DNA of 30,979 nucleotides from a virus (taxonomy: Duplodnaviria; Caudoviricetes), in IMG/VR virus record IMGVR_UViG_3300037424_000154, positions 1 through 30,979 of that record, one strand, 5' to 3'. Positions 955-30,979 of the stretch are shown piece by piece. Within the stretch, counting starts at the first letter, position 1. Each line of letters begins with the position of its first letter. The position numbers were made by a program, and so were the translations under genes. The notes under the pieces were generated by a model, which saw nothing but the letters and a program-made list of their open reading frames with translations, was not told the DNA's origin and made no database searches.

Positions 955-1573
955 TACTATTTCCTCCGCTTGTCTTTTCCCACGTCCTTACTGCGGCTTT
1001 CCAATCCCTCATATGATTTTTCCCGACCCTCCACCCGTTCGATGTGTAGTGGTCAAACCATCGCTCAGGGTCTACGGCGTTCTTGCGCTCAGCGCAGTAG
1101 GCTGCCACCTCAGCAAGCGACGGTTTTACAAATTGCCTGCGCGGTGGAGCGTCAGCGACACCAGTGTTTATGGGTAATGATGGTTCTACTGATGGTTCTA
1201 TTATGGTTATGGGTGCACGTGGTGCAGGGGTACCCTGCACGTGGTGCAGGGGGGGGGTGCACGTGGTGCAGGGGTACCCTGCACGTGGTGCAGGGGTGTC
1301 GATTCCGACAGGGGTGCACGTGGTGCAGGGGTGTATGGTGAAAATGCTGGAGCTGCCGCCCCTTTGAGATCTGGTTATGTGGCCAGCTGCCTCTAGTTCT
1401 GCGAGGTGTTTGTAGACGGATCGCTCGCTCAGCCCCGTCCTTGCGGATAGACGCCGAATGGACGGCCAGCATATTCCGTCATCGTTTGCCTGGTCGGCTA
1501 GGCTGATTAGGAGAAGTTTTGCAGGGCACGGAAGATCGACTTCCCATGCTGTAGAGAGGGATTTATAGCTCAT
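839..1573 (-). CDS. Replication initiator (O-like, N-terminal winged HTH)
   Basis: AKLLLISLADQANDDGICWPSIRRLSARTGLSERSV HTH, central iteron repeats, C-terminal FDHYTSNGWRVGKNHMRDWKAAVRTW; alternative GTG start at 1585. Confidence 0.9.
   Translation of the reverse strand: MSYKSLSTAWEVDLPCPAKLLLISLADQANDDGICWPSIRRLSARTGLSERSVYKHLAELEAAGHITRSQRGGSSSIFTIHPCTTCTPVGIDTPAPRAGYPCTTCTPPLHHVQGTPAPRAPITIIEPSVEPSLPINTGVADAPPRRQFVKPSLAEVAAYCAERKNAVDPERWFDHYTSNGWRVGKNHMRDWKAAVRTWEKTSGGNSNGKNQQPDTRSRAKRFSDKLDEIARRDIEQKGFADKLG
1214..1331. repeat. Replication origin: five 17-bp iterons TGCACGTGGTGCAGGGG
   Basis: Copies start at 1214, 1236, 1258, 1280 and 1315 (spacing 22,22,22,35); each contains the dyad TGCAC-GTG-GTGCA; adjacent more AT-rich TGATGGTTCTA repeats at about 1165-1213. 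Confidence 0.9.
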
Positions 1574-1584
1574 CAGTGAATCCA

Positions 1585-1665
1585 CATTAGGGCCAGCCCC
1601 GGGTGACAGTTACCCGGATGTGCTGGCTCGACGCCTAGTGAAGGGTGCCGGGACTGGCTCTAATG
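1585..1665 (-). ncRNA. c4-like antisense RNA (three-stem structure)
   Basis: Closing stem 1652-1665/1585-1598, two internal hairpins, and segments CACAUCC and CUGUCAC complementary to upstream GGAUGUG and GUGACAG. Confidence 0.7.
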
Positions 1666-1676
1666 CAGACTCACGA

Positions 1677-1703
1677 CACATCCTATTGCGCCTGTCACGG
1701 CGC
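1677..1703 (-). promoter_or_regulatory. c4 target sites (a1/b1-like)
   Basis: Hairpin GCGCC-GUGACA-GGCGC (1703-1688) followed by GGAUGUG (1683-1677). Confidence 0.65.
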
Positions 1704-1712
1704 TTATAACGG

Positions 1713-1741
1713 ATGCTAAATATCTGCCTCGGCAATGTCAA
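1713..1741 (-). promoter_or_regulatory. Sigma70-type promoter for the c4-like RNA and replication genes
   Basis: TTGACA-17 bp-TAGCAT. Confidence 0.8.
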
Positions 1742-1821
1742 CCGTTCGCCGCTCCCGCGACGTGCCAGTCTCGTCCATCAGGCGTTCGATGTCATACGTG
1801 CGAGTAGTTCGGTTTTGTTTG

Positions 1822-2013
1822 TCATTTCTCCACCTCGTTAGGTCTCCACGATTTCGGGCACAGCTCCGGGTACATCAGCGCGAGAACCTGCCGCCTCGCA
1901 CGAGGTATGCCAGAATTGCGCCACTCTGAAACTGAGGGATGGGCGATGCCGAATATCCGCGCAACCGCCATAGTCCCGCCGAGCCTATCAATCAATTTGC
2001 CGTATTTGTGCAT
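1822..2013 (-). CDS. cro: Cro-like HTH regulator
   Basis: 63 aa, LIDRLGGTMAVARIFGIAHPSVSEWRNSGIP; first gene of the leftward early operon. Confidence 0.85.
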   Translation of the reverse strand: MHKYGKLIDRLGGTMAVARIFGIAHPSVSEWRNSGIPRARRQVLALMYPELCPKSWRPNEVEK

Positions 2014-2021
2014 AGTCGCAG

Positions 2022-2050
2022 ATAGTAGCCCAGACTACGATGAATTGCAA
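2022..2050 (-). promoter_or_regulatory. Leftward early promoter with operator GTAGCCCAGACTAC (2025-2038)
   Basis: TTGCAA-17 bp-TACTAT; the dyad operator overlaps the spacer and -10. Confidence 0.75.
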
Positions 2051-2078
2051 ATACCCCATTGTGGATAGGATAAAATTG

Positions 2079-2107
2079 TTGACTCACGCCGTAGCCTAGA
2101 CTACAGT
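2079..2107 (+). promoter_or_regulatory. Rightward early promoter with operator GTAGCCTAGACTAC (2091-2104)
   Basis: TTGACT-17 bp-TACAGT; operator 13/14 identical to that at 2025-2038. Confidence 0.8.
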
Positions 2108-2113
2108 TTGCGC

Positions 2114-2287
2114 ATGAACATCATCCGCCTACTGCCATGCACCGATACCCAGGCTCTCGACATATACGCCGAGCTGGTGGGAGTCGTGTGCCTGGTGGTG
2201 GGCAATATCACTGTATTTTGCGAGGAGGATTTGATGCCGCAATCGCAAAAGCGCTCGGAACGGAGAAGCAGAAATGACCCCTCTTGA
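2114..2287 (+). CDS. Putative leaderless 57-aa ORF (MNIIRLLPCTDT...)
   Basis: ATG follows the -10 box by 6 nt; not in the ORF track; no recognisable family. Confidence 0.4.
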   Translation: MNIIRLLPCTDTQALDIYAELVGVVCLVVGNITVFCEEDLMPQSQKRSERRSRNDPS

Positions 2288-2600
2288 CGCATACCAAATC
2301 TGCGGCGGACTCGACACAATCCGTGCGTGCGAGGACAACGAGACACGCAAATGCGAGTATGCCGAGAAACGCGCAGAACTGTGCCGCGCACGCTATGCGG
2401 CTATCCCTGCCGAGTTTCGCGGTTCGCTGCTGCTGGAGGCAGTAAGCGAGCTGGCGCAAGGTAATAATATCGACGACGAGATCGTCGCCGCATACGATGC
2501 CGGTGACGATGCCGCGCTACTGTGCGCCGTGCGCAAAATGCTGGACGGGTATCGGGCGTATATTGCTGAGCGTGACGTGCGCGAGGAATTTGGAGAGTGA
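2274..2600 (+). CDS. Hypothetical phage protein
   Basis: 108 aa, GGAG RBS, operon context. Confidence 0.75.
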   Translation: MTPLDAYQICGGLDTIRACEDNETRKCEYAEKRAELCRARYAAIPAEFRGSLLLEAVSELAQGNNIDDEIVAAYDAGDDAALLCAVRKMLDGYRAYIAERDVREEFGE

Positions 2601-2657
2601 ACCTCCGGTTAATGATGGTGCAATCGGCGGCAACGCCTATCCGATCGAGATTGAGGA

Positions 2658-2855
2658 ATGAATAGCCGGACATGGGTAATCGTCATTGGCATGGCCTGGC
2701 TGATATCTCTGACATTCTCGGGCGGCTATGCGTGGGGCGATTGCGCAAAGCTCTCGCTGTCGATCGAGCGCGCGTACCAATGGTCACCTGTCGGCGGGTG
2801 TAAAATAAACGTATCAGGCATCTATGTGCCGAGGGAGAATGGAGAATGGCAGTAA
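2658..2855 (+). CDS. Small membrane or exported protein
   Basis: N-terminal hydrophobic helix; GAGG near start. Confidence 0.65.
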   Translation: MNSRTWVIVIGMAWLISLTFSGGYAWGDCAKLSLSIERAYQWSPVGGCKINVSGIYVPRENGEWQ

Positions 2856-3082
2856 CAACCGTAGGCGTGGTGATGAATCGCATTATGTCGGCAACTGAGG
2901 AATCGCCTATCGCAGTGTTTCGGGCGGACGATAAATATCTGCGCGAGTCAGGCTTTTACGAATCGGTATTTGCCAGCACTGTCGAGACGCAGGCGCGCAT
3001 CGAATCTGGCGGCCCTGATTTCGTAGGCACATTCCATGCCAAATCAGATAGCCCGAAAGAGATATTGAGCCGGATTAAGTAG
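2846..3082 (+). CDS. Hypothetical phage protein
   Basis: Overlaps the previous gene, GGAG RBS. Confidence 0.7.
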   Translation: MAVTTVGVVMNRIMSATEESPIAVFRADDKYLRESGFYESVFASTVETQARIESGGPDFVGTFHAKSDSPKEILSRIK

Positions 3083-3095
3083 GGGAGGAATATCA

Positions 3096-3230
3096 ATGGC
3101 AACTCGAATGGGCAAAGAATACCTGTTGCAGATACAAGCCGAGCGCCGGATAAATCCTGCGGCGCTCCTGCGCAAGCGCGGAATCATCGGGCGGATCGTG
3201 GAATTTCTGAATCAGCGAATTGAGCCGTGA
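3096..3230 (+). CDS. 44-aa hypothetical protein (MATRMGKEYLL...)
   Basis: Strong GGGGAGG RBS; read directly from the sequence, below the ORF-track cut-off. Confidence 0.6.
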   Translation: MATRMGKEYLLQIQAERRINPAALLRKRGIIGRIVEFLNQRIEP

Positions 3231-3287
3231 ACGGCGCAGGCTGGCGGCAGCGCGAAGAGCAACTAGAGCGAATGAGCGAGGAAATGA

Positions 3288-3938
3288 GTGATGAGCATAG
3301 CAACAATGATTCTCGGGGAAAGCGGAACAGGCAAAACAACCAGCCTGCGCAACATGGTTGCAGCCGATACGCTGCTGATTCAATCGGTGAAAAAGCCGCT
3401 CCCTTTTAAGTCGGCGGATTGGAAGCCGGTACAGGGCGGCGGCAATGTGTATGTGTCTGATCAATCGTCGCAGATTGTCGCGGCGATGCACAAAACCTCG
3501 CGCAACGTCATCGTGCTGGATGATTTCCAGTATCAGATGAGTAATGAGTTCATGAGGCGCGTTACTGACCAAGAGGTCGGCAATTCAGCGTTTGCCAAGT
3601 ACAACGAGATCGCAAAACACGCATGGGACATCCTGATTGCTGCGAGCTCGCTGCCGGATAACAAGCGGATCTACATCCTGTCTCATTCGAACACTGACGA
3701 GTTTGGCAGAACCAAAATCAAGACCATCGGCAAGTTGCTCGATGAGAAAATCGTCATGGAGGGGCTTGTAACAATTGTGCTGCGAACGATGGTCCAGAAT
3801 GGCAACTATCTGTTCTCGACGCAAAACAGCGGGAGTGATACAGTAAAAAGCCCGCTGGGAATGTTTGACGATGAGATGATCGACAACGATTTAATGAGCG
3901 TAGATCGTGCGATTTGTAAATATTACGGAATCAACTAA
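3288..3938 (+). CDS. AAA/P-loop ATPase, Sak4-like recombination protein
   Basis: Walker A GESGTGKT, Walker B VIVLDD, adjacent to SSB-like and Gp157 genes. Confidence 0.85.
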   Translation: MMSIATMILGESGTGKTTSLRNMVAADTLLIQSVKKPLPFKSADWKPVQGGGNVYVSDQSSQIVAAMHKTSRNVIVLDDFQYQMSNEFMRRVTDQEVGNSAFAKYNEIAKHAWDILIAASSLPDNKRIYILSHSNTDEFGRTKIKTIGKLLDEKIVMEGLVTIVLRTMVQNGNYLFSTQNSGSDTVKSPLGMFDDEMIDNDLMSVDRAICKYYGIN

Positions 3939-3946
3939 CCGAGGAA

Positions 3947-4561
3947 ATGAGCATGTATAACCTGGACACGAACGCAGCAAAGCAAGCCGATCAAAAGAGC
4001 GGCGCAATCAACGAGGCAGGCAAATATATCGGCACATTCACCCGCGCCGAGAACATCACCAGCACCAAAGGAACTCACGGAGTTGAGTTCTCGTTCAAAT
4101 CCGACGCTGGCCTCGGCGCAGACTATCTTACCTTGTGGACAAAGAACAAGGACGGCAAGGAGCTGTATGGATACAAAACACTGATGGCAATCATGGCCTG
4201 CCTCAAAGTGCGTCACGTCACTAAGTCTGAGCGCATGGTCGAGAAATACGATCACGCCTCAAAGACAAAAACACAAGTGCATGCCGAAGTGTTCCCCGAG
4301 CTGATGGGCAAGCCCATCGGCCTGCTCATCACGATGGAGGAATACGAGAAAGGATCTGGCGGCACCGCCTGGAAGCCGACCATCTATGCGCCGTTCGAGG
4401 CGGGGACTGAGCTCACTGCAAGCGAGATTCTGACCAAGGCACAGCGTCCGGAAATGATGCAAAAAATGATGCTTACGATGAGCAATCGCCCGCTGCGCAA
4501 CAAGCCGGCCGCATCTGCGCCGCAAAACTTCGATGATTTCGACGACGATATTCCGTTCTAG
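3947..4561 (+). CDS. Phage single-stranded DNA-binding protein (non-canonical SSB)
   Basis: Acidic C-terminal FDDFDDDIPF tail; follows the Sak4-like ATPase. Confidence 0.75.
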   Translation: MSMYNLDTNAAKQADQKSGAINEAGKYIGTFTRAENITSTKGTHGVEFSFKSDAGLGADYLTLWTKNKDGKELYGYKTLMAIMACLKVRHVTKSERMVEKYDHASKTKTQVHAEVFPELMGKPIGLLITMEEYEKGSGGTAWKPTIYAPFEAGTELTASEILTKAQRPEMMQKMMLTMSNRPLRNKPAASAPQNFDDFDDDIPF

Positions 4562-4574
4562 GAGACTTATTCGC

Positions 4575-5075
4575 ATGACCACTCTCACGCTGTACCAAAT
4601 TTCCGACGAGTACGCAGCAACTCTTGCGCTGGCCGACCTGGACATGGACGAGCAGACCATCGCCGACACGCTGGAAGGGCTGTCCGGGGCGCTGGAGGCA
4701 AAGGCGCAGAATGTCGCAATGTTCGCCCGCAACCTCGAAGCCAGCGCCGCCGCTATCAGGGAAGCAGAGCAGCAGATGGCAGCACGTCGCAAGGCCATCG
4801 AGTCCCGCGCAGAGCGTGTCCGCGAGTACATCAAGGCAAACATGCTTCGAACTGGCATCAGCAAAATCGAGTGCCCGTATTTTGCCATCGCCATCAAAAA
4901 CAATCCGGCGTCTGTCGTTGTCGATGATGTGCGCGCAATCCCGGCGGATTTCATGCGCCAGCCCGAGCCGCCGCCGCCAGAGCCCGACAAAAAAGCCATC
5001 GGGACGGCATTGAAAGCAGGCAATGACGTGCCTGGATGCCATCTTGACCACGGCACGCGGCTTGAGATTAAGTAG
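4575..5075 (+). CDS. Siphovirus Gp157 family protein
   Basis: MTTLTLYQIS, DTLEGL, KNNPASVVV, PDKKAI...ALKAG..VPG; AGGAG RBS. Confidence 0.9.
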   Translation: MTTLTLYQISDEYAATLALADLDMDEQTIADTLEGLSGALEAKAQNVAMFARNLEASAAAIREAEQQMAARRKAIESRAERVREYIKANMLRTGISKIECPYFAIAIKNNPASVVVDDVRAIPADFMRQPEPPPPEPDKKAIGTALKAGNDVPGCHLDHGTRLEIK

Positions 5076-5102
5076 CTAAACAGGACGCGCAAAGGGGGGG
5101 TC

Positions 5103-5474
5103 ATGATAACCGCAGAACGCATAGCCGACTACATGGCCGAGGGAATGTCACGCGAGGACGCTATCCGCAGAGTGCGCGAGGAGCTGGAGATTGCGCGTCA
5201 GGTGCGGGCGGTGAATGACAAGAAGACAACTCCAGGCGGGCGCGGGATGAGATTCTTGCGCCGTATAGTGGATACGGGAATGGGAGGTAGCATGCAAACC
5301 TGCGAACAATGCTCACACTACGAGATGAACGATGCAGCCATGGGCCGCGCCCGTCATATCTGCTGGATAGCCTATGGCGGTGCTCCGGCGATTGGTGACA
5401 AGTGCCCGGGGTTTGATGAGAAATTCAATGCCCGTGCGCGCGCCGTTGATGCTGGCGTTGTGAATTACGAATAG
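5103..5474 (+). CDS. Hypothetical protein, possibly a fusion of two small genes
   Basis: Internal GGAGG RBS before MQTCEQC (Cys-rich C-terminal half). Confidence 0.6.
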   Translation: MITAERIADYMAEGMSREDAIRRVREELEIARQVRAVNDKKTTPGGRGMRFLRRIVDTGMGGSMQTCEQCSHYEMNDAAMGRARHICWIAYGGAPAIGDKCPGFDEKFNARARAVDAGVVNYE

Positions 5475-5479
5475 GAGGA

Positions 5480-5734
5480 GTGATGGACGGCAACATTATA
5501 ATCCAGAGTTACGTGTGGCATGGCGGAAAGTGTTTCTTCGTCAGCACAATAAACCGGCGGTCACCGGCGGCAGCGGCTTACGGCGCGATATACGCAGAGA
5601 CGATGGCGTGGGATTACGCCAGCGGGAAACGCGGTGCGCTGGTCTATCAGCCAGACGCATGTCAAGACTCTATGCGCGGACATTTTGCCATGTGCGAGCG
5701 GATGCGCGCTGATGGACTGGCTACAGAGTCCTGA
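5480..5734 (+). CDS. Hypothetical phage protein
   Basis: AGGAGG RBS, 84 aa. Confidence 0.7.
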   Translation: MMDGNIIIQSYVWHGGKCFFVSTINRRSPAAAAYGAIYAETMAWDYASGKRGALVYQPDACQDSMRGHFAMCERMRADGLATES

Positions 5735-5873
5735 TTTCGCCCGCTGGCGCAGACTCCGGAAAGCCAAGCGCTGCGCATGGTGCGCTATATGGCTGGCGGC
5801 ATGGATAGCGTTTCTGCTGGCGTCTCAGTGGTTGATGCTGGCGATGCATTCCGCTGTGACGCAGAACGCCTGA
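5712..5873 (+). CDS. Small membrane protein ending inside attC1
   Basis: MDWLQSPDF...AIWLAAWIAFLLASQWLMLAM...TQNA; stop codon lies within the attC site. Confidence 0.5.
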   Translation: MDWLQSPDFARWRRLRKAKRCAWCAIWLAAWIAFLLASQWLMLAMHSAVTQNA

Positions 5874-5919
5874 ATTCAGCGCGCGCCCGCAGGGCGTCCG
5901 CTGGAATGATGAGTTAGCC
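5861..5919 (-). mobile_element. Integron attC site (59 bp), attC1
   Basis: Minus strand: R'' GGCTAAC, 5 nt, L'' ATTCCAGC, central dyad, L' GCTGAAT, 6 nt, R' GTTCTGC; unpaired G5904 and T5897 at positions 16 and 23. Confidence 0.85.
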
Positions 5920-6241
5920 GCCTACTCACCACGAAGCGCGGCAAAACTTGGAGATAGGCATGCACTACAGAAACGGACGTGAAGCAAGGAACGGGGACAA
6001 GATCGTGAAACTGGAAGGCGGCAAGGTGGTTGCCTACGGCGTGCTGCACAGCGCAGTAGCCGGAAACGACTACTGCAACGGCAACATTGCGGCAGTGCAG
6101 CCGGTGAACGATTACGCCTGCATGTGCGACTGCCTGCACATTGACGACGTGGCCGAAGCGCTGGCCGCTAAAGGCTTGGACAAGCGCCCCGAGGGGAGGT
6201 AATTCGCCGCACCGCCACTGGCTGATGCTGGTGGCGGCTAA
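5867..6241 (-). mobile_element. Integron-type gene cassette (375 bp)
   Basis: Bounded by two attC GTT crossover points; GTTAGCCGCC (5913-5922) and GGCGGCTAAC (6233-6242) are perfect reverse complements. Confidence 0.8.
5960..6202 (+). CDS. Cassette-borne 80-aa hypothetical protein
   Basis: MHYRNGREARNGDKIV...DYCNGNI...ACMCDCLHIDD; GGAG RBS. Confidence 0.85.
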   Translation: MHYRNGREARNGDKIVKLEGGKVVAYGVLHSAVAGNDYCNGNIAAVQPVNDYACMCDCLHIDDVAEALAAKGLDKRPEGR

Positions 6242-6294
6242 CGCAAAGCTAAACGGCGGGCGGTAGCCCGTCCGATTTGGGCGCCGGGTTAGGC
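6236..6294 (-). mobile_element. Integron attC site (59 bp), attC2
   Basis: R'' GCCTAAC ... R' GTTAGCC on the minus strand; plus-strand hairpin with unpaired G6279, A6275 and T6271 (positions 16, 20, 24). Confidence 0.8.
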
Positions 6295-6308
6295 GCGGGA
6301 GAAGAACG

Positions 6309-6410
6309 ATGACGCCAGACGAACAGCTTCTGGCTCGATTCAAGGTGGCGCCTGAGCCATGCTATCTGGCGGCCAGCGGCGCCGTCACGGCGTCGGCGTA
6401 TCGCCTGTAG
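6309..6410 (+). pseudogene. Probable truncated gene of a second cassette
   Basis: GGAG RBS just after attC2, MTPDEQLLARFKVAPEP..., runs into the convergent i-spanin gene. Confidence 0.45.
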
Positions 6411-6814
6411 GCGATGAGGTCGGCTTGAGTTGCGGCACATAGGGCAGCGATCCGGATAAGAACTGACGCATCATCTGCTGATAATTCACGCCCAGTGGCA
6501 CCGACACAGGCGGCGGGGCTGGCGGCTTGGGGCACTCCGGTGGGACGCTCGGGCCGGTTGCGCAGCCGCTCAATATCATCAAGCAGGCCATCGCGAATAC
6601 CGGCCATCGCCCAATATTGCTCTGATAGTGCATGATTCACGACCTCCTGTTGCTCTCGCTCTGTTTTGCGCGCCGCTTCCGACGCCTCAGCCCGCGCCTG
6701 CTCGATTTTGGCGCGCCAGGTGGTAGCCTCGGAACGGTGGCCGTGGATATCGCCAGCAAGGAACGCGCCAGCGATTGCCAGCGTGCCGGCGAGCAGTACC
6801 CAGGAATTAAGCAT
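6362..6814 (-). CDS. Rz: i-spanin (Rz-like)
   Basis: N-terminal TM segment, coiled-coil region, follows the holin, contains a nested lipoprotein ORF. Confidence 0.85.
   Translation of the reverse strand: MLNSWVLLAGTLAIAGAFLAGDIHGHRSEATTWRAKIEQARAEASEAARKTEREQQEVVNHALSEQYWAMAGIRDGLLDDIERLRNRPERPTGVPQAASPAACVGATGRELSADDASVLIRIAALCAATQADLIAYRRYADAVTAPLAAR
6385..6633 (-). CDS. Rz1: o-spanin lipoprotein (Rz1-like), fully nested
   Basis: AGGAGG RBS, lipobox LSGC, Pro-rich mature region. Confidence 0.85.
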   Translation of the reverse strand: MHYQSNIGRWPVFAMACLMILSGCATGPSVPPECPKPPAPPPVSVPLGVNYQQMMRQFLSGSLPYVPQLKPTSSPTGDTPTP

Positions 6815-7142
6815 CCCCGCCATCCTTATGCACAGACACCCCGAGTCGATTTCCTAGGAGCTGCTCCAATGCGAATATACCCCGACTGCCCATGTGGCCT
6901 GAGATACCGACGAAAGCGGCTGTAATGAGCGGATGGAACCCGGAAGCCTCGCACAGCCAGAACGTGATTACCCCGACGAACCCGGCTGTCACTATCTCGC
7001 CTACAAGTTCTGTGACGTTGAAGGCCCGTACTGCGCCGGTTCGCATCTTGCGGTAGAACGATACGACGCCTCCCCACACTGCCAGGAAAATAACCCACGC
7101 ATAGGTTATCAGCGAGTAGTTGAACGGGTCTTTCTCCGGCAT
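6807..7142 (-). CDS. Holin
   Basis: MPEKDP start, three hydrophobic segments, GISGHMGSRGIF motif. Confidence 0.9.
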   Translation of the reverse strand: MPEKDPFNYSLITYAWVIFLAVWGGVVSFYRKMRTGAVRAFNVTELVGEIVTAGFVGVITFWLCEASGFHPLITAAFVGISGHMGSRGIFALEQLLGNRLGVSVHKDGGDA

Positions 7143-7158
7143 GGTGCTGGCCCTATTG

Positions 7159-7713
7159 TTACGTTTTAACATGTGTCAACGCCGCTCTCAGTCGGCCCCA
7201 ATCAAACAGCAATCCGGGGTCTTTCTTCCTCCCCGGCGCCACGTCGCTATGCCCGACAATGTTACCCACGGTCACGCCGTGATGCGTCATCAGCTCTGCG
7301 CATAGGTGGCTCAATGCTGCGTACTGGTCGCCAGTATAGCCGCTATCATGCGTGGCGATAAGCTCAATGCCGATGCTCCATGCATTGAGATTGTCACGGC
7401 CACGCCAGGTTGATACCCCAGCGTGATATGCCTGTTTTGTCTCTGGCACCAGCGAATAAACCACGCCGTCCCGGTCTATCATGTAGTGGGCGCTAGCATA
7501 CTGCCTCGGGTTGTTACTTGGCGGCATAACCAGTCCGCGCTCGGCCCCGGCGCTGTTGAGGTCGAGGAGCAGGTCGTAGCATGTGTCCGGGGCGAATTTG
7601 TTGTCCGGCATGGCATAGAGCGCCGAGAAATAGTGAACGACAATCGCACCCACTTTCCCCAGCGGCTTCTGCGAGTAGCAGTATTCCGGCAGCGGACGGT
7701 TAATAATTTGCAT
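7159..7713 (-). CDS. Endolysin, N-acetylmuramoyl-L-alanine amidase (AmpD-like)
   Basis: IVVHY, SAHYMIDRDG, AYHAGVS, SIGIEL, GHSDVAPGRKKDPG. Confidence 0.95.
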   Translation of the reverse strand: MQIINRPLPEYCYSQKPLGKVGAIVVHYFSALYAMPDNKFAPDTCYDLLLDLNSAGAERGLVMPPSNNPRQYASAHYMIDRDGVVYSLVPETKQAYHAGVSTWRGRDNLNAWSIGIELIATHDSGYTGDQYAALSHLCAELMTHHGVTVGNIVGHSDVAPGRKKDPGLLFDWGRLRAALTHVKT

Positions 7714-8087
7714 CAGTCACAATGCCCCTCATCAAATGGATCGAGTAAATGCTCACACAACCAAGTAGCCAGCTTCTTGCGCCAGCAGCTCCCGCGCTTG
7801 TGTCGCGCCAGTCGCGCAGTCAGCAGCCACTCGCCCTCGTTCACAATGTACCGGCCACCGACAAGGCGTGGCGGTTCGAGGAACAGGATTGAGCCCATTG
7901 TGATGTTCGTCAGCGCATCCAGCGGCAGGCCGATTGCCAGCAGCACATAGGCGTTGAATTTTGCGAACGGGTGCAGGCTATGCCTCACGATGCGCAGGTG
8001 CATGATCGCGACGTAGAACAGCCATGTTAGCAGGGTCAGAACGTAGAGCGCGGCGGCGTAGGTGATTAGCTCGATCATGACGGCCAC
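7713..8087 (-). CDS. Membrane protein between the tail and lysis genes
   Basis: Two hydrophobic segments, C-terminal LLDPFDEGHC. Confidence 0.75.
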   Translation of the reverse strand: MAVMIELITYAAALYVLTLLTWLFYVAIMHLRIVRHSLHPFAKFNAYVLLAIGLPLDALTNITMGSILFLEPPRLVGGRYIVNEGEWLLTARLARHKRGSCWRKKLATWLCEHLLDPFDEGHCD

Positions 8088-8554
8088 TCCATCTGGGGGA
8101 GTTCGGCAATCAGCTCTTCGATGGTTGGCTGCGTGCGCTGCCCTGAGTAAACCGCGTCAGCCTGGGCGATGCAGTATAGCCATACCTGAGTACGCCAGGC
8201 CTCGAACGCATCCGCATCCGCAGTGAAAGCGGGGAACGCGCTGTCCCTGTAACTCAGGCATGCGGCAGTGGGCGACATGGTGGCGGTCCCGTACCTGCGG
8301 GCGCGGGCCACGTCGTCAATGTGCATATCGACAGCCAGCTCCAGCTCTGCCTCTATCTCTTTTGTTTTGGCCGCGAGGATAGCGTCCGTCGGGTCGACAA
8401 CAACAATGCCGCCATCGGCAATCTGCAACCAGCCGGCATCCGGTACATCGAACGGCTCGAACCCCTCATCCAGGGCCGCAGCTGCGTCGAACCCGTCCCA
8501 CCCACTGTCACGGGCGGCGATACTGCCTTCCTCTATTTTTGCGTATATTGGCAT
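8075..8554 (-). CDS. Tail fibre assembly/chaperone-like protein
   Basis: Follows the fibre gene; AFEAWRTQVW...PTIEELIAELP.MEWP C-terminus. Confidence 0.7.
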   Translation of the reverse strand: MPIYAKIEEGSIAARDSGWDGFDAAAALDEGFEPFDVPDAGWLQIADGGIVVVDPTDAILAAKTKEIEAELELAVDMHIDDVARARRYGTATMSPTAACLSYRDSAFPAFTADADAFEAWRTQVWLYCIAQADAVYSGQRTQPTIEELIAELPQMEWPS

Positions 8555-10273
8555 TTATGAAATCCTCTTGATGGTGGCAACACCAGAGCAGGGGTTACCA
8601 AAATTCAATGTTCCGAGCGATGACCAGATCGTTGAATTATTGTTCCACTCAGTCGTGTAGTACCGCGCCTCGTTAACACCTGCGACCAGCGCTTTGCAGA
8701 CACCGGTATACCGTTTCAATGCGTTCGCTACGCCCCCGGTTGATCCGATATGCACCTCGCCGGAAAAAAACATAGGCGCATTAACATTGCGCTGCCCGTA
8801 CGCCAGCTGAATCGATGATGCGGAAGCAGTTACAGATGATGGCGTTGCACCAGCAATGACTCGTTCAAAAAACTCGTTAAACTGAGAGGAATATGACGTG
8901 TTGTTCGGGGTCAACGAAATCGCAGTATCGGGACCGGCCATGTCAGTATCGCCGGAAATCATATATATGCCGCCGTTCGTGGTGTTAATCCGTAGCGCCC
9001 TACTCGTCTGACTGGTCCACGAGACGATTGCCGTCTCGCCAGGATGGAGGATAATGTCGACGAGGAGGTCGGAGGTGTCCACGACGTTAGCCAGTTGGCG
9101 GCCGCCAAAGCTGCCGGAGTACGACTTAACCACGAATACGCCCGTGGGTTCGGTGACCTGCCAGGAGCCGGATGAGTAGTAGGTCACCCGCTCTGTGTCA
9201 ATGTAGCTCTTCCCTATCTCGAAGACGACGAATTCCTGGTAACTGGCGGAGGCCTGCACCCAAACATCAACCGCCTGACCCAGAGCATCGGCGGGGGCCA
9301 CCGCCCGAAACATCGGCGCGTATGCGGTGGCCGTCGCTACCATAGACTGCACCCGGATAGCCGATCGTGCGCGGCTGAATGTCGAAGTGTCTTGCCTCAA
9401 GTTAATCATCACGTCGAAATGGCCCGACAAATTGGCCTTCGACAAGACGCGCAACGATACCGTGACATCGCGGTATGTAGTTGTATTCATCTGTACCGTG
9501 GCTACTTTAAACCAATACCCATTGCTGGTCCCATTGCCCGGCAGCGTCGCGACTTGACGACTCACATTGCCACTGCTGCCCGTCGCGACCTCCAGCTGCT
9601 TCAGCTCCGACACCGCAGTTATCGGATTGCCGACGTTCGTGCCGTCGCATTCGAGCAGTCGGGATGAACTCACCGGCACAGTTTTGCCCGTACCGGCAGA
9701 TGTTTTAACCGTCGGCGCGCGAGTGGTCGAGGCATTGTAGAACGTCCACCGGCGGTCCTCGTCGGGGACGATGAGGCTCTTGTCAGTCGTCCAGTTCGAC
9801 AAGTCGAGGTTGATCTTGTCCGCTGTGTACTCGGCTTCGGCCAGGGTGTAGTTGGCATCCGTTGGCGGGGTGACGGTGACTTCGGTTATTGCGCTGCTGG
9901 AGCTTGCCGGAGTGCCCGCGAGCTCGTCGATGGCCGCTTGTACATTCTCTGCCGTCAGTCCTGATTCTGTGTTGTCGTATTCTATGCCTGAGGCTGCCGG
10001 CGCATCATCAAGAACAACGACGTCGTTAAACGTCTGCGTGCTGCCGGCCAGAGTTGCGCTGATATTGTAGCGGCCTGGATCGACGTATACGCGGAAAAAA
10101 CCCTTGCTGTCTGCCGTTACAGGATTCGATACCGCGCTTCCGCCTGACCGCGCATCATAGAGCGATGCGGCAGCTCCGCTACTGGCAACGGTGATTGATA
10201 CAGATGCGCCAGCGGCTACGGAAATATAGCCATTCGCGCTCTGGATATTTGCCTGTATTACGCCGCGTGCCAT
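8555..10273 (-). CDS. Tail fibre / receptor-binding protein
   Basis: N-terminal NPVTADSKG anchor region, SGLTAENVQAAIDELA linker, Ser/Thr-rich beta-type distal part. Confidence 0.8.
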   Translation of the reverse strand: MARGVIQANIQSANGYISVAAGASVSITVASSGAAASLYDARSGGSAVSNPVTADSKGFFRVYVDPGRYNISATLAGSTQTFNDVVVLDDAPAASGIEYDNTESGLTAENVQAAIDELAGTPASSSSAITEVTVTPPTDANYTLAEAEYTADKINLDLSNWTTDKSLIVPDEDRRWTFYNASTTRAPTVKTSAGTGKTVPVSSSRLLECDGTNVGNPITAVSELKQLEVATGSSGNVSRQVATLPGNGTSNGYWFKVATVQMNTTTYRDVTVSLRVLSKANLSGHFDVMINLRQDTSTFSRARSAIRVQSMVATATAYAPMFRAVAPADALGQAVDVWVQASASYQEFVVFEIGKSYIDTERVTYYSSGSWQVTEPTGVFVVKSYSGSFGGRQLANVVDTSDLLVDIILHPGETAIVSWTSQTSRALRINTTNGGIYMISGDTDMAGPDTAISLTPNNTSYSSQFNEFFERVIAGATPSSVTASASSIQLAYGQRNVNAPMFFSGEVHIGSTGGVANALKRYTGVCKALVAGVNEARYYTTEWNNNSTIWSSLGTLNFGNPCSGVATIKRIS

Positions 10274-30053: not shown

Positions 30054-30415
30054 CATCGTTAAAGTCCCCATGATTCGTGCACCGGTACGCAGAAAATCTC
30101 CGACCCTTCCGGGATATCAACATCCGCAATCTGCCGGAGATCTGCCGTCGTTGTGTTTTCCAGCATCCCAGCAAATCCGACTGATTCCCATTTGAACACA
30201 TGCAAGGCGCGGGACAACTTGATGCGGCCATTCTCCCGCACAACATCACCAGCAAATATCCAGCCACGATCTACTACGATCACGGCGCGATTGCCAACAA
30301 CCTTGATTGTGTTCGATGCCATTTTTTTGCCCTCTCGTTAATTTCTGAGCCCAGACAATACCGACTCAGCGCCAGCCAATCCAATCAATTGTTTCTATCC
30401 CAGTCGCGGAACGCT
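30054..30415. repeat. 362-bp direct repeat, complete copy
   Basis: 30054-30177 = 30856-30979 and 30315-30415 = 1-101. Confidence 0.9.
30059..30322 (-). CDS. Conserved small phage protein (DUF6948-like)
   Basis: VIVVDRGWIFAG...GFAG; GAGAGGG RBS; family recalled as a frequent neighbour of (Gly-X)n genes. Confidence 0.7.
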   Translation of the reverse strand: MASNTIKVVGNRAVIVVDRGWIFAGDVVRENGRIKLSRALHVFKWESVGFAGMLENTTTADLRQIADVDIPEGSEIFCVPVHESWGL

Positions 30416-30537: not shown

Positions 30538-30858
30538 TTACGGCAGCCTGCGCCGCGATCTTGCTCGAACCGTTCCGTTGCCGTTGCCGTAGCCGTAGCC
30601 GTCGCCGTTGCCGTCGCCGCCGCCGTTGCCGTTGCCGTTGCCGTTGCCGTAGCCGTTGCCGTTGCCGTTGCCGTAGCCGTTGCCGTAGCCGTAGCCGTAG
30701 CCGTCGCCGTTGCCGTTGCCGTAGCCGTCGCCGTTGCCGTTGCCGTTGCCGTAGCCGTCGCCGTTGCCGTAGCCGTAGCCGTCGCCGTCGCCGTAGCCGT
30801 CGCCGTTGCCGTAGCCGTAGCCGTTGCCGTAGCCGTAGCCGTCGCCTACCGGATGCAT
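30538..30858 (-). CDS. (Gly-X)n repeat protein, X = Tyr/Asn/Asp
   Basis: MHPV-(GD/GY/GN)n-TVRARSRRRLP; ATG 2 nt after the stop of the duplicated upstream gene. Confidence 0.7.
   Translation of the reverse strand: MHPVGDGYGYGNGYGYGNGDGYGDGDGYGYGNGDGYGNGNGNGDGYGNGNGDGYGYGYGNGYGNGNGNGYGNGNGNGNGGGDGNGDGYGYGNGNGTVRARSRRRLP
30574..30846 (-). repeat. Hexamer tandem repeat GGC-NAC
   Basis: About 45 units of GGCTAC/GGCAAC/GGCGAC, one GGCGGC. Confidence 0.95.
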
Positions 30859-30979
30859 CGTTAAAGTCCCCATGATTCGTGCACCGGTACGCAGAAAATC
30901 TCCGACCCTTCCGGGATATCAACATCCGCAATCTGCCGGAGATCTGCCGTCGTTGTGTTTTCCAGCATCCCAGCAAATC
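30856..30979. repeat. Partial copy of the 362-bp repeat, with the 3' end of a second DUF6948-like gene
   Basis: Identical to 30054-30177. Confidence 0.95.

Follow-up and report, generated by a model that had tools for sequence, protein, structure and literature searches.

A gene cassette inverted relative to its attC site in a tailed phage, and its counterparts in phage integrons

The early operon of a tailed phage ends in a 375-bp gene cassette whose gene is encoded on the bottom strand of its own attC site. This cassette belongs to a widespread phage variant of the integron. We consider it quite probable that the unit 5867-6241 is a bottom-strand-gene cassette of a phage-borne integron type, whose cassettes likely owe their mobility to IntI acting by its usual bottom-strand chemistry and their expression to the phage's early promoter. 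Integrons are treated as bacterial devices, and lately as stores of anti-phage genes. If our reading is true, a widespread phage integron that has a clade of integrases to itself would provide a dedicated mechanism behind the small-gene mosaic of phage early regions.

The cassette, its two attC sites and its gene

The window, meaning the whole stretch of 30,979 nucleotides that was analysed, is the entire virus record IMGVR_UViG_3300037424_000154, a tailed phage of ~30.3 kb. Its gene content includes terminase, capsid, NinB/NinG, an O-like replication gene and a lysis module (Table 1). The original prediction placed the cassette gene and its neighbours on the plus strand, and indeed each of the 12 genes called between 2114 and 6202 is found there, with the lysis genes running convergently from the right toward the early operon. 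As for the promoter proposed at 2079-2107, its position in the divergent gap at the operon head stands, but its sequence match (9/12 to the consensus) is not above chance, with 2 such matches found against 3.2 in shuffles.

Table 1. Features of the cassette region and its setting in the window
Feature	Position	Strand	Remarks
Five 22-nt repeats, probable origin	1210..1332		inside the O-like replication gene
Candidate sigma-70 promoter	2079..2107	+	weak match; lies in the divergent gap ahead of the operon
Early operon	2114..6202	+	Sak4-like annealase, SSB, Gam-like protein, small genes; the cassette is its last member
Possible 53-aa hydrophobic ORF, insertion target	5712..5873	+	final codons cross the AAC crossover (in-frame Asn), stop inside attC-L
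attC-L, the cassette's own attC	5861..5919	-	top strand minus, bottom strand plus; crossover AAC 5865-5867; R'' 5913-5919
Complete cassette, 375 bp	5867..6241		attC-L, leader, gene, 3' tail
Ribosome-binding site GGAG	5950..5953	+	downstream of R''; purine-rich leader conserved in the homologue alignment
Cassette gene, 80 aa	5960..6202	+	inverted relative to attC-L; Cys/His/Asp-rich small beta protein, no named family
Hairpin in the cassette 3' tail	6212..6237	+	-11.7 kcal/mol as RNA; common to L010 and L144
attC-R	6236..6294	-	polarity as attC-L; member of a second, truncated cassette; extrahelical G6279 on plus
33-codon ORF	6309..6410	+	behind a ribosome-binding site; runs into the 3' end of a convergent Rz-like gene

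The attC grammar was written for the top strand, and the whole window was scanned on both strands. The top-ranked candidates in the 31 kb are 5861-5919 (score 15.3) and 6236-6294 (14.0), while a score of at least 13 was reached by 0.05 sites per window across 20 dinucleotide shuffles. Both sites have the R''-L''-L'-R' boxes, the AAC/GTT triplets and spacers of 5 and 5-7 nt. Both fit solely with minus as the top strand; at the opposite polarity the left site scores 9.4 and the right one gives no candidate. This bears out the claim that the extrahelical G/T bases lie on plus and that plus is the bottom strand. On its top strand, attC-L is composed of R'' (GGCTAAC), a 5-nt spacer, an 8-nt L'' with an extra base, a 19-nt loop, a 7-nt L', a 6-nt spacer and R' (GTT). 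Its unpaired bases on plus (G5903/5904 and T5897) belong to the arm facing AAC (5865-5867), as is the case for bottom strands in the accessible text of PMC5027507. For attC-R, a G-T wobble is feasible on plus alone. Folding of attC-R is better than that of shuffles (z -2.3), whereas attC-L folds no better than them (z -0.16). The bottom strand of attC-R is more stable than the top one (-16.8 vs -14.8 kcal/mol), with no such asymmetry in attC-L (-15.5 vs -15.6 kcal/mol).

The crossovers C5867 and A6241 delimit exactly the unit 5867-6241, as originally predicted, and 10 nt at one end of the cassette are complementary to 10 nt at the other (5913-5922 with 6233-6242). With two crossovers, complementary R''/R' ends and neighbours that vary across loci, the unit qualifies as an integron cassette. 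It is not a canonical one, in which a top-strand ORF reads toward its own attC: the gene 5960-6202 is inverted because the bottom strand (plus) of attC-L is also the coding strand.

On the left, the 53-aa ORF had no PHROG match and is absent from the calls of our own gene finder. On the right, the ORF at 6309-6410 is probably the stump of the gene of the second cassette; no homologous DNA to it was found among the fetched loci. The window is a minimal two-site remnant, with one complete cassette plus a stump severed by the lysis module. It corresponds to a CALIN (at least two clustered attC, no integrase), as called by our own detector and not by IntegronFinder. It is not a complete integron, with intI and attI beside the array, and tblastn of 82 IntIs against the window gave no match at E 0.01. 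The contigs of four runs over 2000-9000 revealed no joint skipping the cassette, a comparison of contigs alone that is uninformative either way. Relatives of the holin (69 loci, 37-70% identity) included no close relative with an empty site. Within the cassette gene, 6135-6154 has a perfect 20-nt inverted match to 8306-8325 in a tail-region gene, 2.1 kb apart.

The 80-aa protein has 5604 homologues, with no PHROG or NCBIfam family assigned to it and no precomputed Pfam domain among the 120 homologues listed. Its predicted structure is confident (pLDDT 90.9), and searches with the model matched no known fold (Foldseek E 6.4 or worse; best Z 2.8, rmsd 5.3, 47 aligned). Its Atlas neighbours are unnamed viral clusters, and blastn of the cassette DNA against annotated phages returned no match. 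The conserved Cys, His and Asp suggest metal binding, although any function read from these residues is a guess.

Homologous loci were taken as the best 80 of 448 viral and 80 of 81 genomic matches, giving 160 loci, 145 of them unique. The tabulation of ORF against attC orientation in this set yielded no canonical attC (0/145 unique loci), and an intact attC within 200 nt upstream in 4/145 (5 at a lower threshold), all inverted. Most homologue copies are ordinary phage genes. A gene family found both free and as a cassette (4-5/145 loci) is material on how cassettes arise, and cassette genesis is called largely unknown in the available part of PMC5371416. The window shares its upstream site with L021 and L108, the similarity beginning at AAC, and differs from them downstream. 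Its 3' boundary at AAC 6240-6242 is common to L010, L018, L059, L094 and L144, each with different neighbours. The upstream attC is decayed in L010, L018 and L059, and in L018 an intI comes directly after the cassette.

Orientation of cassette genes in viral and bacterial loci

Gene direction was taken from our own gene finder, and each site was assigned the gene belonging to it. A first degenerate attC pattern retrieved 131 viral loci, of an estimated 510, with 307 sites: 257 inverted, 15 canonical and 35 uncalled. The bacterial comparison covered 301 genomes of one class, through 28 hit loci and 20 larger hand-chosen regions, and the 152 sites of these 48 loci were 11 inverted, 96 canonical and 45 uncalled. 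Since sites within one array are not independent, we used the count per locus, which gives an inverted to canonical split of 94:9 in viral vs 4:35 in bacterial loci (Fisher p 2e-20). Unpublished-genome loci from G044 and G146 (L313, L322, L405) were left out of all counts.

A second pattern, which matches an estimated 200 viral stretches, gave 169:32 (29 uncalled) in the viral set vs 37:133 (57 uncalled) in metagenomes, with 121 loci each. Canonical loci in this viral set are 16/121, and 5/10 of the inverted metagenome loci have a PHROG match among the genes submitted. At score 12, the detector missed the PH101 sites (scores 10.0-10.4) and the P12002L sites, so AT-rich sites are undercounted.

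Several controls support these calls. Chromosomal integrons beside intI (L292, L296) come out as canonical, and the strand call of the detector agrees with the published assignment for the TJE1 sites. As a check of gene direction, PHROG matches at E <=1e-5 were obtained for 42/117 inverted cassette proteins (of 249 family representatives), and the GenBank annotation agrees on gene direction for ctTUS972 and PH101. Phage-type cassette genes include methyltransferases, Lar-like and Mom-like genes and nucleases.

In terms of protein families, none of the 416 unites inverted viral with canonical bacterial members, a result of low power with 383 singletons. Under the same shallow sampling, the 277 families with inverted viral members have 0 in common with canonical bacterial cassettes. 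Some bacterial cassettes, such as toxin-antitoxin pairs, carry reversed ORFs, and the cassette-family set includes one such case, a BrnT-like gene.

The longest uniformly inverted arrays have up to 12 sites in 6 kb (L236). Exceptions with canonical polarity among phage arrays are TJE1, Rctr41k and the L373 group. Conversely, a chromosomal array with otherwise mostly ORF-poor units has one inverted cassette with a phage homologue (L499, 2347-2812; G248 C3). A single canonical cassette is present within an otherwise inverted phage array (L218, 3402-3903), possibly captured from a host.

Phage integrases and the platform of the arrays

The prophage-like contig L108 encodes terminase, portal, capsid and, separately, a phage integrase, and carries four inverted cassettes followed by a co-oriented intI. 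When used as a query, its IntI retrieved 54 viral loci. In L108 (4305) and L230 (2668) the array and intI are bordered by an excisionase-like gene on one side and the integrase of the phage itself on the other. Considering loci where an upstream attC was found, the gene adjoining intI is co-oriented with it in 30/32 viral loci and opposed in 17/20 bacterial ones. The order in related phages is early operon, cassettes, attI-like motif and intI, all in one reading direction. These sequences show that attC polarity in the phage platform is normal relative to intI, with the ORFs alone reversed. As phage genes are read toward intI, Pc could not express them.

The attI-like motif, a conserved AAC plus half-site, lies between the last cassette and intI. 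Searched alone, it was found in 20 viral loci, 7 of which are contigs already seen; an intI starts 52-113 nt behind it in 15, a fragment is elsewhere in 2 and there is none in 3. L515 and L521 retain inverted arrays and the motif with no intI behind it, and would represent a route to integrase-less arrays like that of the window.

The phage IntIs form one clade within bacterial IntIs (SH-aLRT 99), with 36 rows, or 42 with 6 motif-found ones in an 87-row tree that leaves out three long branches (L392, L173, L183). These trees come from quick searches without bootstrap, sampling began from one query and the sister group changed between trees. The catalytic RKHRHY residues are intact in 36/36 phage-clade IntIs, the IntI-specific insertion is aligned in the 8 phage rows listed, and 5/5 phage IntIs tested pass the TIGR02249 cut-off. 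LexA-like boxes precede intI in 3/33 phage-clade vs 7/34 bacterial cases.

A second viral IntI group of 6 members (L373, L374, L376, L377, L378, L394) has intI ahead of canonical-polarity sites, and Rctr41k (L502) likewise has intI upstream of canonical-polarity attC. This layout is another way to place everything on the operon strand. The phage-specific cassette pool of the original prediction is supported, as a phage bias, by the viral and bacterial counts and by the phage IntI clade; the bias is not absolute given TJE1 and this second group. Separately, the viral contig L173 has a canonical cassette with a divergent intI (2656-3057) inserted among tail genes; we take this cassette to be SMR-type.

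These data bear on whether a phage system is needed at all. A host IntI could now and then place bacterial cassettes of the rare inverted-ORF kind into phage DNA, at secondary G|TT sites, where any that are expressed would survive. Such an origin agrees with the lack of intI in the window genome, the non-consensus left target of attC-L (GTTCTGC), the inverted cassette in the chromosomal array of L499 and the secondary-site insertion documented in the accessible part of bioRxiv 10.1101/2022.09.11.507474. Nevertheless, we consider it unlikely as a general account in view of the long uniformly inverted arrays, the phage IntI clade with its own attI-like motif, the phage-type cassette genes with their PHROG matches and, within the shallow sampling, the absence of families in common with canonical bacterial cassettes. 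It may be how the window genome in particular got its cassette.

The recombined strand and a proposed mechanism

A different reading keeps the phage system and alters its chemistry. Phage IntIs would cut the other strand (at R''), or both strands, and the gene would travel with its downstream attC and not be truly inverted. The ends of 225/277 units are fully complementary, vs 55/277 for the arms of one site, which points to recombination at the R boxes without telling which strand is used. The assigned bottom strand is the more stable one at 312/411 viral and 115/150 bacterial sites. The mean skew is -1.58 in viral vs -1.55 kcal/mol in bacterial sites, and a value of -2.12 appears in the available text of PMC5027507.

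Experimental information exists for PH101, where the published bottom strands of attC1 and attC2 correspond to the annotated gene strand, hence inverted. IntI1 recombines these bottom strands better than the tops, according to the accessible part of PMC9892861. The two published sites of P12002L are on opposite strands and are uninformative. The PH101 record (L527) has the published attC2 sequence twice in its array, at 76538 and 77940.

The association between genes and attC cores was compared in 16 pairs of homologous viral cassettes from different phages, with the upstream core more similar in 8 and the downstream core in 8. Core co-segregation above background is limited to an X-Y-X array in L353 (4188-5916), where one cassette occurs twice; between one AAC crossover and the next, upstream attC included, the two copies are 100% identical. 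By its sequence, this duplicate would be a sign of recent reshuffling. The homologous cassettes of L204 and L353 are 95% alike from one R box to the other but differ in both cores. The neutral co-segregation implies frequent replacement of attC cores, for which occasional cuts at R'' may be responsible.

Cutting of the other strand draws on this exchange of cores on both sides of homologous genes, on the equal stability of the attC-L strands and on the low-rate top-strand recombination at some sites noted in the accessible part of PMC5027507. We find it improbable, because the L353 duplicate owns its upstream core, the window, L021 and L108 have the upstream site in common from AAC on, the intI end of arrays consists of AAC and a half site instead of a full attC, the stability skew goes in the same direction as that of bacterial sites and the PH101 assay favours bottom strands. 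A canonical attC is absent from the homologous loci, and the available evidence favours plus as the recombined strand of the window sites; on both points the original prediction holds.

Least credible of all is that the hairpins only look like attC and would instead be decayed relics or RNA elements such as terminators or processing sites, since their position on the coding strand between co-transcribed genes, the poor folding of attC-L and the decayed upstream sites of L010, L018 and L059 are outweighed by a full attC grammar far above chance, similarity that breaks exactly at AAC, no match to a terminator on plus within 1500-7100, no Rfam family at gathering score and the linkage to intI.

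Under the bottom-strand-gene reading, a phage ancestor would have acquired intI together with attI, both placed at the tail of its early operon. IntI would be made from the early transcript, together with the array, during lytic growth, when single-stranded DNA is plentiful, and attI would be the entry point for new cassettes. Only reversed-ORF cassettes would be transcribed there. Canonical ORFs would be antisense in the phage operon, and this would select for a reversed pool built from ordinary phage genes. The probable origin would put the attC bottom strand on the lagging-strand template, a position that would be beneficial on the basis of the accessible part of PMC5371416. Reversed cassettes would be silent behind Pc in host arrays. 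The reversed layout likely lets phages swap their own gene pool, read from the early promoter, and the reversed polarity would separate phage and host pools while one recombinase chemistry serves both.

As for the window genome, it would have lost intI or never had it, and the cassette would have been inserted by the IntI of a host or a co-infecting phage. Lacking intI and having just two sites, this genome either depends on an integrase supplied in trans or is a relic, and the cassette itself may now be one.

A broader proposal is offered tentatively, as a possibility that we hold with less than even confidence. Here phages would run their own integrons: a phage-specific IntI lineage expressed in the early operon would assemble cassettes from ordinary phage genes and shuffle a large reversed pool, carried silently in host arrays. 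Every ORF is flanked by inverted R boxes, and recombination between these boxes would flip the ORF or swap attC cores, and would be the route between host-type and phage-type cassettes, making cassette genesis visible.

The phage type resembles canonical integrons, as described in the accessible parts of PMC4889954 and PMC5027507, in its attC grammar, extrahelical bases, strand-stability skew and complementary cassette ends. It also shares with them a TIGR02249 integrase and the attC polarity relative to intI. Unlike in canonical integrons, the phage ORF is on the bottom strand with attC ahead of the gene, ORFs run toward a co-oriented intI, the genes are phage-type and expression would start in the phage operon, on the side of the array away from intI, and not at Pc.

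Next, the phage CALINs TJE1, PH101, P12002L and ctTUS972 of PMC9892861 are likewise attC clusters without integrase in phage genomes. On re-check the arrays of PH101 and ctTUS972 are inverted and that of TJE1 is canonical. The accessible part of that paper makes no mention of ORF-versus-attC inversion or of a phage IntI clade, although its figures and Dryad annotation file may show orientation, and there its complete integrons are captured host integrons. It reports 21 phages, vs the estimated 510 and 200 viral stretches from our two narrow patterns.

Inverted-integrase integrons (Treponema type), as given in the available text of PMC4889954, also have intI co-oriented with the cassette genes. 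There, intI is oriented as the attC sites and lies ahead of canonical cassettes, whereas in the phage type it comes after the array and attC polarity is normal. The main phage clade is not of this type, as the top strand of the upstream attC is opposite to intI; the L373 group and Rctr41k do resemble it. SALINs and attG insertions (accessible part of bioRxiv 10.1101/2022.09.11.507474) similarly place a cassette outside an integron platform, beside a resident promoter, but ORF inversion relative to attC is undescribed in that part. Our literature search, in which subscription journals were scarcely covered and which also spanned the accessible parts of PMC8618304, PMC13366799 and bioRxiv 10.64898/2026.03.17.712381, found no account of reversed-ORF phage integrons.

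Lastly, the minus strand of the window at 30538-30873 encodes a gene of Gly-Asn/Asp/Tyr dipeptide repeats. It is flanked by duplicated stretches (30054-30177 equal to 30856-30979, and 1-101 equal to 30315-30415), which may reflect an assembly tangle or a variable insert.
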